A stretch of 55,033 nt of DNA from a virus, in the UHGV virus genome UHGV-0072939, one strand, 5' to 3'. The notes beneath the pieces are model-generated. The model was given only the letters and a program-made list of their open reading frames with translations, made no database searches and was not told the origin of the DNA. Shown piece by piece: positions 49,972-55,033 of this stretch; position 1 is the stretch's first letter, and each line of letters starts with the position of its first letter. The translations under genes and the position numbers were made by a program.

Positions 49972-50763
49972 TCATTGAAAACTGCTTTTAGAACTTGATA
50001 CAACGGGACTAGTCACAACAGGACTATTCTCAACGGGATCATCCTCAGAGGAACTATCATCAAAGTCATCATCCATAAATAAAATATCATCGAATGGTGC
50101 CACGCCCGTGATGAGTTTTATTTTATTATTACGATCAGTCAATACTCCACTTAAACCGTTTTCGCTCACAGGTTTTAATGATTTTTCATTACTCTTGTTG
50201 TAAGCAGGCGCATTAAAAATACACGGAATATCAACATCAAACAATGACGTTCCCCAGTTCACATATTGAATATCATAGTTACTGAAGTTCTGTCCAGAAA
50301 AGAAGCACCCCTTAAAATCCAATCCACGTAAATTATATAAACCACCCTCTTCTTTTTGGAGAGTAATGTTAATTTTGGCTATCTCCCGGACATCATCGCC
50401 ATTTTTGTATTTGAATACCGTTTCAAGATGTTCTCCAGACAGCTTGACTTCAGGAAATAATTTGAAATCAAAGCCTATATTATTATGTGTCAACGTAGAT
50501 GAACAAAAAATGGAAAAAGCTTGCAGTGCTGAATTATAGCTATCGATTTTATCTTGAGGCTGAGCTCTTGGTAAAAACTTATAGCAACACTCATAAAAAT
50601 TAAACAGAAGCTCTGAAGACCTTGTATTTTTATCAAATAATACCCCCTTGAACTCATTCACAAACGCATCTTTTTTTTCTTGAATATCTATGGGGTGTTC
50701 CTTTGACTCTGACAAAGATGAAATCTCATCTATTTTGTTTTCATATGAATTACGTGATTCCAT
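49972..50763 (-). CDS. hypothetical protein (263 aa), AT-rich
   Basis: long ORF in strongly AT-rich DNA; no family recognised. Confidence 0.5.
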   Translation of the reverse strand: MESRNSYENKIDEISSLSESKEHPIDIQEKKDAFVNEFKGVLFDKNTRSSELLFNFYECCYKFLPRAQPQDKIDSYNSALQAFSIFCSSTLTHNNIGFDFKLFPEVKLSGEHLETVFKYKNGDDVREIAKINITLQKEEGGLYNLRGLDFKGCFFSGQNFSNYDIQYVNWGTSLFDVDIPCIFNAPAYNKSNEKSLKPVSENGLSGVLTDRNNKIKLITGVAPFDDILFMDDDFDDSSSEDDPVENSPVVTSPVVSSSKSSFQ

Positions 50764-50862
50764 ACAGACATTTGGCGGCGTTTCTAAAATAACACTACGC
50801 GTACTACTTGGCTTAAGTAAACCAACATGAAAATCACTTTTTCTTATATTATCGAAAAGGTT

Positions 50863-51345
50863 CTATTCATTTCTTTTAGCGCATTCAAAAAACTGATCGG
50901 CATTATTTTTATTCGATAATTTTTTAGTTTCAGAAAACACATTTTCATTGTTTTCCAGCTTTAGTTTAATGAGAAGATTTTCCCAGACCTGCTTGCTTAA
51001 ACATATTACGTCAGGCTCACCAGAACTAACTAACTCGTGATTATTATTAAAGTGTACGTTGAATACCTTTAAGTTATTTTCACCAACTTCATATTTAATA
51101 CGTTTTAATTGTTCTCCAGTTCCCATAATGACAAAGGCGTTGCCTTCTTGATATATACATTCAGACATCATTTTTTGTAAAGTTTCAAGAGCACCGCGAT
51201 ACGTCTCTGATGCAGCTTCCTTACAAATTAATTTTAAAATACTATGAGCTAGTAGCTCCATGTGTTTAGAAGATTTATTTTCATTATAACTTCCACTACC
51301 CAAAACTGCGCTAGCGTTAAATCCGTTGCTTTTACTAACTAACAT
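50863..51345 (-). CDS. hypothetical protein (160 aa), AT-rich
   Basis: ORF in AT-rich DNA; no family recognised. Confidence 0.45.
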   Translation of the reverse strand: MLVSKSNGFNASAVLGSGSYNENKSSKHMELLAHSILKLICKEAASETYRGALETLQKMMSECIYQEGNAFVIMGTGEQLKRIKYEVGENNLKVFNVHFNNNHELVSSGEPDVICLSKQVWENLLIKLKLENNENVFSETKKLSNKNNADQFFECAKRNE

Positions 51346-52095: not shown

Positions 52096-52171
52096 TGGTG
52101 GCCCTTGCTGGACTTGAACCAGCGACCAAGCGATTATGAGTCGCCTGCTCTAACCACTGAGCTAAAGGGCC
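52096..52171 (-). tRNA. ileY: tRNA with anticodon CAU, tRNA-Ile2 (lysidine) type
   Basis: reverse complement GGCCCTTTAGCTCAGTGGTTAGAGCAGGCGACTCATAATCGCTTGGTCGCTGGTTCAAGTCCAGCAAGGGCCACCA folds as a cloverleaf with GGTTCAAGTCC T-arm and CAU anticodon; matches recalled ileX/ileY. Confidence 0.9.
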
Positions 52172-52730
52172 TTGAGTGTGCAATAACAATACTTATAAAC
52201 CACGCAATAAACATGATGATCATATGATGTAAATAACAGATTTTTATGCGTTCCCATTCACCTTGGGTCGTGATTACACGCGACATAAAACCCGACACCG
52301 CCTCCATTCGCAAAGTCGATACTCGCAGTCAACAAGCAAATGTTAATAATTAGCACTATCTATAGTTATCATCGATTCAATGATACTTTGTAATGATTTT
52401 GTATCTAATAATATAACTTTATTACATTAGCTGAAGAGTTTTCGCATCATTATGATATCTGTTACTTTTCACTCCATAAAAATAAACTTCGTATAGCAAT
52501 ATATTCTTTCATAGATCTTATTCTGCTAATCATTAGTTTCGTATGAGCGATTTTTGACAGTTGCCTCTCCAGACCACATCGATAATTAATAAAACAGATT
52601 TAAGCATTATCCTTTTCCATATAAATATTGGATAAAAGTAGGACATCTGTTTGCAATTACTTTCACAACAATTAAACATTTTTATGTTTCCGTATACATC
52701 ATATTACTCTACCATTAGAGGAACTTTATT

Positions 52731-54983
52731 ATGTTTTCTATAAAACCAGGACCCAGAAATTTACCTATCGACAACCCCACATTGTTATCATGGAACATTA
52801 CTGACGGGGATCTAAATTCCAAATTAAATACATTAGAATATCTAAACTGTATAACAAATATTATTAATTCTTGTGGAGTTTACCCTCAAGGATTAAAAGA
52901 CAGAGAAATTATATCAACTTTTCACGCAGAAAAATTTATTAATGATCTGTTAAAAAACGATTATAAAATTTCCCTTTCTCCAGATACAACTTACCGAGAG
53001 TTGAATAAAGCAGCACAGCGTAGCATTACAGCGCCAGACAGGATAGGAGAAAGAAAAACATAGGTTTATCAACGAGATACAATGATTGAAAGAGGTGATA
53101 ACAGCGGTGTTTATCAGTATGGTCGTGCTGAACATTTCACCCACATTATATCTGACAAACCTTCCCCAAAAGATAAATATGTTGCATATGCTATTAACAT
53201 TCCTGACTATGAGCTGGCAGCCGATGTATATAATATTAACGTGACGTCACCTTCCGGACAGCAAGAAACATTTAAAATATTAATCAATCTAGAACATCTA
53301 CGGCAAACACTTGAGCGTAAATCTCTTACTGCTGTTCAGAAATCACAATGTGAAATCATCACCCCCAAAAAACCTGGCGAAGCGATTCTTCATGCTTTTA
53401 ATGCCACCTACCAGCAGATCAGAGAAAATATGTCTGAATTTGCACGTTGCCATTATGGGTATATACAAATCCCTCCAGTGACAACTTTCCGCGCCGACGG
53501 ACCAGAAACTCCCGAAGAAGAAAAGGGTTACTGGTTTCATGCTTATCAACCCGAAGATCTTTGTACCATCCATAATCCAATGGGAGATTTGCAGGATTTT
53601 ATTGCATTGGTTAAAGATGCTAAAAAATTTGGTATCGATATCATTCCTGATTATACCTTTAACTTTATGGGAATTGGGGGTAGTGGTAAAAATGACCTGG
53701 ATTATCCCTCTGCTGATATACGAGCGAAGATCAGTAAAGATATAGAAGGTGGTATCCCTGGCTATTAGCAAGGTCAGGTTTTGATTCCATTCATTAAAGA
53801 TCCAGTAACAAAAGAACGTAAACAAATCCATCCAGAAGATATACATCTCACTGCAAAAGACTTCGAAGCAAGTAAAGATAACATCTCTAAGGATGAATGG
53901 GAAAACCTCCATGCATTAAAAGAAAAGCGTTTAAATGGAATGCCTAAAACAACACCCAAAAGTGACCAGGTTATTATGTTGCAAAATCAATACGTTCGTG
54001 AAATGCGAAAATATGGCGTACGAGGTTTACGTTATGATGCGGCAAAACACTCAAAACATGAACAAATAGAAAGATCAATAACCCCACCGCTTAAAAATTA
54101 TAATGAGCGGTTACACAATACTAACTTATTTAACCCAAAATATCATAAAAAAGCCGTTATGAATTACATGGAATATCTGGTAACTTGTCAGTTGGATGAA
54201 CAACAAATGTCATCACTGCTTTATGAAAGAGATGATTTAAGCGCCATTGATTTTTCATTGCTCATGAAAACGATAAAAGCCTTTTCATTTGGTGGAGATC
54301 TTCAAACCCTTGCATCAAAACCGGGTTCCACAATCTCAAGTATCCCATCAGAAAGACGGATATTGATTAACATTAACCACGATTTTCCTAACAATGGTAA
54401 TCTTTTCAATGACTTTCTATTTAACCATCAACAAGATGAACAATTAGCAATGGCATATATAGCCGCTCTGCCGTTCAGCAGGCCTTTAGTTTACTGGGAT
54501 GGCCAAGTATTAAAATCAACGACTGAAATTAAAAATTATGATGGGTCCACGCGTGTCGGCGGTGAGGCGTAGCTTAATAAAGGTTGCTCTACCTATCAGC
54601 AGCTCTACAATGAATTCCACGCATTATATATAGATAAAGCAGGAATATGGAGCGCATTTGAGGGTGTATCTGCAACTAAAAACGTTCTGGCCTTTAGTCG
54701 TGGGGATTCTGTGAACATTAATCACTCTCCTCATGATGGACTAGTTATAATAAATAAAGGAAACGAAGAAGTTGAAGGTACCTGGCCTAACAAATTGCAA
54801 CCTGGAATATACAAAAACATGGGGAGTAATAGCGTTAACATTATTATTAATAATACCCGAAAAATTATCCCCCCTGGTAAAGTATTTACGCTTAGAGGCG
54901 GAACTCTAAATATCAATATTCCTGGGCGTAGCGCTCTTCTTTTAGGGAAAACAGGAGAACCGCCGAACTATCTCTATTTATAA
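52731..54983 (+). pseudogene. alpha-amylase-family (GH13-like) reading frame interrupted by three in-frame TAG codons
   Basis: four ORF-track segments (52731-53063, 53082-53768, 53781-54572, 54711-54983) share one frame; separated by TAG at 53061, 53766 and 54570; GLRYDAAKH matches alpha-amylase conserved region II. Confidence 0.6.
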
Positions 54984-55033
54984 TTTAATGTTATATCTGC
55001 CCCGATAAAACGGGGCAGATAATATGTTTAGTT

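Follow-up and report, generated by a model that had tools for sequence, protein, structure and literature searches.

A single frame interrupted by three amber codons

The window, by which we mean the whole stretch of 55,033 nucleotides analysed here (UHGV virus genome UHGV-0072939), carries on its plus strand at positions 52731–54983 a single frame of 751 codons, which translates from an ATG at 52731 to the ancestral ORF's own TAA terminator at 54981–54983. Three internal stops interrupt this frame, all of them TAG: codon 111 (53061–53063), codon 346 (53766–53768), and codon 614 (54570–54572). The ORF listing resolves it into four pieces that share the frame (52731–53063, 53082–53768, 53781–54572, and 54711–54983), and the alignment to intact 2253-nt alleles is gapless, so the window allele is free of frameshifts. 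A preliminary description had read the locus in just this way, as four segments in one frame with exactly three TAG interruptions and no indels. The interrupted frame has 3 stops and the five other frames of this 37% G+C stretch have 39 to 86, so the frame is a decayed ORF and did not arise by chance.

A Shine-Dalgarno-like GAGG, read in the sequence and of presumed function, lies 9 nt 5' of the ATG (52718–52721, plus strand), and a consensus scan alone picked out a terminator-like, G+C-rich hairpin directly 3' of the ORF (54994–55021, plus strand). The only tRNA gene in the window is ileY (52096–52171, minus strand), which forms the upstream flank of the AT-rich segment and is a tRNA-Ile(CAU), labelled Met-CAT by ARAGORN; a tRNA was also the sole match of the Rfam scan. 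An ORF of 189 aa on the opposite strand (53343–53912) had no Pfam match.

The feature is the Escherichia coli pseudogene ygaQ, which is young and already annotated. Its counterpart in MG1655 is listed as "pseudogene ygaQ, b4462" (NC_000913.3, 2786397–2788649), has the identical three TAGs, and differs from the window allele at 2 of 2253 nt (99.9% identity), the window carrying V69F and one further substitution. The window allele is 100% identical to those of the wild isolates MB57, PRO_A-2576, and N61, which come from poultry, cattle, and human sources, and the identical allele is flagged "internal stop" by PGAP. The window and MG1655 also share the flanks of the gene, ileY upstream and glaH-lhgD-gabD downstream. 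The G+C content of ygaQ is 37%, against 52% for the window, and the gene has been used to illustrate H-NS silencing of AT-rich, horizontally acquired genes that contain an intragenic promoter (PMC7229825). By megablast, the ygaQ region is found in 4129 of 5426 complete E. coli genomes, with at least 80% coverage in 3366. The older ORF names at the locus are ygaQ, ygaR, yqaC, and yqaD; searching the literature with these names and b4462, we found no paper that treats the triple amber.

The ancestral product resembles GH13 alpha-amylases

For the Pfam search, the protein was restored with Trp at the three stops. The restored protein matches Alpha-amylase (PF00128, residues 264–519) marginally, with 22.6 bits against a cut-off of 22, and Alpha-amylase_C (PF02806, residues 648–738) with 30.6 bits against 21.2. 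Seven GH13 residues (R434, D436, K439, H440, E481, H550, and D551) are invariant in both of our alignments (A1 and A2), and the translated window retains them all. GLRYDAAKH, which the preliminary description had recognised as alpha-amylase region II, lies at about 54024–54050 and includes the GAT of the predicted catalytic nucleophile Asp436 (54036–54038), intact in the pseudogene. The predicted general acid/base of region III, Glu481, is kept as GAA at 54171–54173, and His550-Asp551 of region IV (NHD) is kept as CAC GAT at 54378–54383. By its domains and catalytic residues, the ancestral ygaQ product is thus a predicted GH13 family member.

Sequence matches to alpha-amylases in the PDB reach E values down to 1e-6, and the best matches in both sequence and fold are the Bacillus subtilis alpha-amylase (1ua7 and 1bag) and Ruminococcus bromii Amy16 (9qf9). 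An AlphaFold2 model built from an eight-sequence alignment left the barrel poorly resolved (mean pLDDT 56.9). Foldseek with this low-confidence model placed alpha-amylases at the top (1ua7, E = 4e-15, TM-target 0.63); given its pLDDT, the model lends only weak support to a GH13 fold. Pfam identified no known domain in residues 1 to about 215.

Searched exhaustively with HMMER, a set of 1.84 billion representatives yielded only about six full-length relatives (32–39% identity). Full-length relatives are limited to Escherichia and a handful of metagenomic proteins. Among the matches listed for GTDB species representatives, only Escherichia contributed family members, and E. albertii was absent there; generic alpha-amylases of Vibrio, Lysobacter, and cyanobacteria were 21–27% identical over the catalytic domain among the matches listed. 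One metagenomic homologue with 34% identity adjoins genes with InvH, LRR, FidL-like, and invasin domains. These neighbours hint at a virulence-island context, and they prompted the idea that the ancestral protein might have been a type III secretion effector.

Tryptophan codons preceded all three stops

O157:H7, E. albertii, and eight intact E. coli alleles all have TGG (Trp) at codons 111, 346, and 614; the ancestral-type proteins compared were an intact E. coli protein of 750 aa (P0001) and its E. albertii counterpart of 738 aa (P0005, 60% identity). Trp614 is invariant in all eight alignable full-length family members. Since intact alleles and relatives have TGG, each TAG goes back to a G>A transition in the second position of the Trp codon. 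TAG-614 alone costs the protein its last 137 residues and with them domain C. The preliminary description had proposed comparing orthologues at these positions and had offered two readings, one of them a pseudogene generated by recurrent TGG- or CAG-to-TAG transitions; with TGG ancestral at three of three sites and the locus annotated as ygaQ, this reading is borne out.

Intact alleles occur in seven sampled complete genomes (SM107, WCHEC005784, PCP07014, AR_0015, PapRG-06-5, TW10590, and GN05505) and in one draft assembly (GCA_958335045). Four of eight TGG-614 carriers sampled for spread had an intact gene, and by rough extrapolation perhaps 600–800 of the 5426 genomes hold one. Among four intact alleles, dN/dS is 0.09–0.18, i.e., about 0.1 (Nei-Gojobori), which marks intact ygaQ as a genuine gene that purifying selection maintains. 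The corresponding values between pseudogene alleles (0.18–0.30) were rejected as a measure of selection, since the differences are concentrated in a segment of recombinant origin (nt 205–708).

Allele frequencies suggest the order of the stops

Alleles were typed in the 5426 complete genomes by megablast with 55-mers centred on the variant base and a 28-nt seed; every such seed spans the variant base, so a match demands that allele. TAG-614 was found in 2403 genomes and TGG-614 in 1655, together 4058 of the 4129 carriers. TAG-346 was found in 1082 genomes, and TAG-111 in 1041, of which 895 have the exact K-12 flank. Carriers of TAG-111 include wild isolates from poultry, cattle, pigs, and humans.

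Intermediate haplotypes accompany these nested counts. RSHH22, 123636, and EC61 have TAG-614 alone, ET979 combines TAG-346 and TAG-614 with a new TAA-595 (AAA>TAA), and SY033 adds a fourth amber, TAG-413, to the K-12 triple. Counts and intermediates together suggest the order 614, then 346, then 111. TAG-614, the most widespread, was probably the first inactivating mutation, and TAG-111, the least widespread of the three, is probably the youngest. Recombination within the gene has reshuffled the combinations of stops and blurs this inferred order: a MAG contig (L018) has TAG-111 and TAG-614 without TAG-346, and two mosaic alleles (L007 and L010) have TAG-111 without either of the others. In a mosaic lineage (EA2, CAVP776, L6_E562, and 67-1), the 5' 760 nt resemble the K-12 type, TAG-111 included, and the 3' part is O157-like; this lineage has a 1-nt deletion at nt 1193, and sublineages carry TGA-108 or TAA-107.

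Inactivation has taken many other routes, with at least nine distinct types of lesion at ygaQ across E. coli. O157:H7-type alleles have TAG-413 as their sole amber, a CAG>TAG change at the inner C of the Dcm site CCAGG; this stop is present in 304 genomes, 20 of which have different flanks. The site lies at 53966–53970 in the window (plus strand), where codon 413 is still CAG (Gln). TAG-413 arose twice independently, in the O157:H7-type alleles and in the K-12-type allele of SY033. Other alleles have a +1 frameshift at nt 1640 (TUM12355), IS3 truncations (504838 and SC423), or IS1 and IS5 insertions (MB57 and E94), and further lineages have 5' deletions. One allele with many scattered 1-nt indels (L020, ECMA0423) was excluded as evidence of frameshifts because the indels were judged to be assembly errors.

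Mutational statistics of the window lineage

The window allele differs from the closest intact allele, that of TW10590, at 27 sites. About 17 of the differences are derived on the lineage of the window, among them 3 nonsense and 7 nonsynonymous changes, with about 7 synonymous. No synonymous change is among those limited to TAG-111 haplotypes (the window, MG1655, and the mosaics), which consist entirely of nonsynonymous and nonsense changes. The small number of changes since inactivation makes the missing indel unremarkable, and other lineages do have indels. Nonsense changes are in mild excess among the approximately 17, with 3 seen and about 0.85 expected (Poisson p ~0.05).

There are 334 single-base routes to nonsense in ygaQ, 9 of which are TGG>TAG. 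The share of TGG>TAG is 2.7% under uniform rates, about 6% under a spectrum like that of wild-type mutation accumulation, and 10.7% under the spectrum of the lineage's own remaining derived changes. The probability that three of three stops are TGG>TAG is thus 2e-5 to 1e-3, and the probability that all are TAG by any route is 1–3%. In a wider, biased sample, three of eight independent nonsense events are TGG>TAG and five of eight lead to TAG (binomial p roughly 0.01–0.05). The preliminary description had thought the TAGs notable on the ground that TAG is the rarest natural terminator; that argument fails, because use as a terminator says nothing on the rate at which mutation creates the codon, and 23–30% of nonsense routes lead to TAG.

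G:C>A:T transitions account for 17 of 31 derived changes on the window lineage; their dominance explains much of the TGG>TAG bias and makes transition-driven stops expected. We found no mutational hotspot context at the three TAG sites. A Dcm hotspot was rejected, as none of the three sites lies in CCWGG and only the unmutated codon 413 does, and so was strand-biased deamination, as the lineage's remaining derived transitions are symmetric (9 G>A and 7–8 C>T). We treat the three-of-three TGG>TAG pattern as a mild post-hoc statistical curiosity, for which no mechanism was found.

Decay weighed against readthrough and selection

The other reading in the preliminary description was a gene expressed solely under amber suppression. 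Functional ygaQ would then yield its full-length protein only by readthrough of three UAGs, through an amber suppressor tRNA or a programmed event, which we consider next to impossible. Its appeal is that the frame is otherwise intact and keeps the catalytic D436, E481, and D551, that C is the next base at two of the three TAGs, and that many laboratory K-12 strains carry supE44; C after UAG is reportedly a weak termination context, as Poole et al. are said to have described in 1995. The TAGs are, however, derived replacements of conserved Trp codons; read by supE, they would yield Gln, even at the invariant Trp614. A screen of the 5426 genomes for the glnV suppressor allele (a 55-mer with the anticodon CTA of supE44) found it in 158, against the 1041–2403 genomes that have the TAGs, wild isolates included; all 25 of the matches listed are laboratory K-12 strains or derivatives (C600, RR1, DH1, JM109, DH5a, J53, and transconjugants). 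Alleles that share the stops also carry further disabling lesions, which the preliminary description had named as evidence against expression: TAA-595 in ET979, TAG-413 in SY033, an IS1 insertion in MB57, which shares the window's stops, and TAA-107 or TGA-108 plus the 1-nt deletion in the group of L6_E562, CAVP776, and 67-1. Three readthrough events would in any case multiply to a negligible yield. As to pyrrolysine recoding, Pyl machinery is not known in Escherichia, and the ancestral residue at the UAG sites is Trp, neither Lys nor Pyl.

Two further rivals take the truncated products seriously. A 110-aa "YgaQ" from ASKA has been reported to have ssDNA-flap nuclease activity and, when overexpressed, to confer UvrD-dependent mitomycin C resistance, and both activities were gone after mutation of D25/D27 and a C-terminal Glu-Arg-Lys triplet (PMC4725251). 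This protein is the piece that ends at TAG-111, and the triplet is codons 107–109. The fragments might then be genes themselves, with the 110-aa product a newly exapted ssDNA-flap nuclease that aids mitomycin C tolerance. Consistent with this, R108 is derived and exclusive to the K-12-type TAG-111 haplotype (895 genomes), codons 107–108 changed three times independently in TAG-111 haplotypes, and a good Shine-Dalgarno sequence precedes the ATG at 52731. We nevertheless find exaptation very improbable: Pfam recognises no domain in the piece, its residues fall outside the catalytic domain of the amylase, only about 19% of E. coli genomes have it, related haplotypes shorten it further at codon 107 or 108, the additional nonsynonymous change V69F of the window falls within it, ygaQ is regarded as H-NS-silenced (PMC7229825), and the reported activity comes from plasmid overexpression only (PMC4725251). 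A stump found in only about one-fifth of genomes calls for tempered functional claims. The fuller proposal that TAG-111 created a functional nuclease, that the changes at 107–108 reflect selection on its new C-terminus, and that the upstream run of ambers was selected strikes us as barely more plausible. No better placed than exaptation, and thus also a long shot, is the idea that positive selection favoured ever more upstream stops (614, 346, 111, and 107/108 in relatives), each of which would shorten a costly or toxic truncated product of the foreign gene. The frequency-inferred order does run 3' to 5', two further independent stops lie just 5' of TAG-111, nonsense is mildly in excess among the derived changes, and the many independent inactivations across E. 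coli suggest a dispensable or costly gene. Yet neutral mutation would place the second stop upstream of the first, and the third upstream of the second, with a probability of about 0.38 (estimated from codon positions), which deprives the order of any weight; in SY033 a stop was added downstream of earlier ones, selection would favour neither TAG nor Trp codons specifically, and silencing by H-NS should have made the gene cheap already.

Ordinary decay of a foreign gene through three successive TGG>TAG mutations is therefore the account that we hold with high confidence. The ancestral gene is AT-rich, was presumably acquired horizontally, and lies between the tRNA gene ileY and glaH. It encoded a predicted enzyme of the GH13 alpha-amylase family, 750 aa long and either cytoplasmic or secreted, whose N-terminal extension (about 215 aa) is specific to the family. 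The gene is still intact, and under purifying selection, in some E. coli lineages and in E. albertii. In the K-12-like lineage that led to the window, a G>A change in the invariant Trp614 codon would have turned TGG into TAG and removed the C-terminal domain, presumably abolishing function. Selection may then have relaxed, and G>A changes would have converted Trp346 and later Trp111 into TAG, along with several nonsynonymous changes. With about 17 derived point changes relative to the closest intact allele, this decay is recent.

Within a single species, the locus clearly exemplifies how a foreign gene silenced by H-NS can decay in parallel along separate lineages. The "YgaQ" that has been studied biochemically is a 110-aa stump of a 750-aa enzyme, and the intact protein, as a very narrowly distributed GH13 relative, may be worth enzymology. 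As to the pseudogene itself, the finding re-discovers one that is catalogued in K-12 and has little import for biology at large.

Comparison with known systems

The neighbouring pseudogene ypjCB (ypjB and ypjC of K-12) resembles ygaQ in that it is AT-rich, flanks ileY, and is split solely by an in-frame TAG, where intact alleles have Gln. It differs from ygaQ in that it belongs to an unrelated family (DUF5507/DUF5508), lies on the opposite strand, and has a single stop. The four local ambers, three in ygaQ and one in ypjCB, are all G>A on the plus strand.

Amber hotspots at Dcm (CCWGG) sites were reportedly found in lacI by Coulondre and Miller in 1978. The change of codon 413 of ygaQ (CAG in CCAGG) to TAG, twice independently, is of the same kind, whereas the three TAGs of the window arose outside CCWGG (ACATGGG, ATTGGC, and GCGTGGC).

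With the GH13 alpha-amylases 1ua7, 1bag, and 9qf9, YgaQ shares regions I–IV, the Asp/Glu/Asp residues, and a C-terminal all-beta domain, although identity in the structural alignment is only 16–17%. In region I, YgaQ has Phe (DIIPDYTFNF) where GH13 usually has His, and, unlike these enzymes, it has the additional N-terminal region of about 215 aa.

Recurrent changes within ygaQ

The Dcm methylation site CCAGG at window 53966-53970, which holds codon 413 (CAG, 53967-53969) of the alpha-amylase-family pseudogene ygaQ, is a population-level amber hotspot. A C>T change at this site produced the amber codon of O157:H7-type alleles (TAG-413; 284 of 5426 complete E. coli genomes with the exact flank), and 20 genomes have non-O157 flanks around TAG-413. 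The identical change arose independently in SY033 on a K-12-type allele, the haplotype of MG1655 and the window, and ygaQ of this strain thus has four in-frame ambers.

Changes also cluster at codons 107-108 (window 53049-53054), just upstream of the in-frame amber at codon 111. Among haplotypes with this amber, three independent changes fall within 5 nt: GGA>AGA (G108R) in the K-12 type (895 genomes), GGA>TGA at codon 108 in the CAVP776 type, and GAA>TAA plus GGA>GTA in the L6_E562 and 67-1 type; the mosaic allele EA2 retains the ancestral GAA GGA. The clustering would be due either to a local hotspot or to selection that acts on the new C-terminus. The Glu-Arg-Lys triplet that was mutated in PMC4725251 coincides with these codons.

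Otherwise near-identical ygaQ alleles differ from the window mainly at nt 205-708 of the gene (window 52935-53438). EC61, RSHH22, and ET979 show 15-19 differences from the window in those 500 nt and 2-8 in the other 1750 nt, a distribution that indicates intragenic recombination. Ancestry switches near nt 760 in the mosaic alleles L007, L010, and L106.

A consensus scan identified a terminator-like hairpin followed by TTTTGATT on the plus strand (window 53757-53778), the loop of which contains the amber at codon 346, probably by coincidence. The GTDB species representative E. coli ECMA0423 has a ygaQ copy (locus L020, 8001-10253; CP178302.1) with the amber at codon 614 and many scattered single-base indels; the indels resemble errors of long-read assembly more than real mutations.

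The ileY locus and its second amber-split gene

The minus-strand tRNA gene ileY (window 52096-52171) was labelled Met(CAT) by ARAGORN, whereas the MG1655 and PGAP annotations give tRNA-Ile(CAU), which is read as Ile once lysidine-modified. Different islands, with CbtA/YeeU toxin-antitoxin and DUF4942 genes, adjoin ileY in other strains, which makes ileY an integration hotspot.

The AT-rich ygaQ neighbour ypjCB (K-12 ypjC and ypjB, DUF5507/DUF5508; window 49972-51345, minus strand) has a single in-frame TAG (50863-50865, minus strand) as its sole interruption. Intact alleles encode Gln at this position, as CAA in O157:H7 and CAG in GCA_958335045. Counting this TAG, the window has four internal stops on the two sides of ileY, every one of them amber.

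A metagenomic relative of intact YgaQ

Outside Escherichia, a single moderately close homologue had retrievable context: P0008, which lies on a human gut metagenome contig (L006, 877-15390) and is 34% identical to intact YgaQ. YgaQ family members have Ser-, Thr-, Asn-, and Pro-rich N-termini that lack a signal peptide. Purely as a lead, ancestral YgaQ might be a secreted effector-like enzyme. Genes around P0008 encode InvH, LRR_4, FidL-like, Trans_reg_C, EAL, and invasin/intimin-type domains, and this neighbourhood resembles a virulence or T3SS island.
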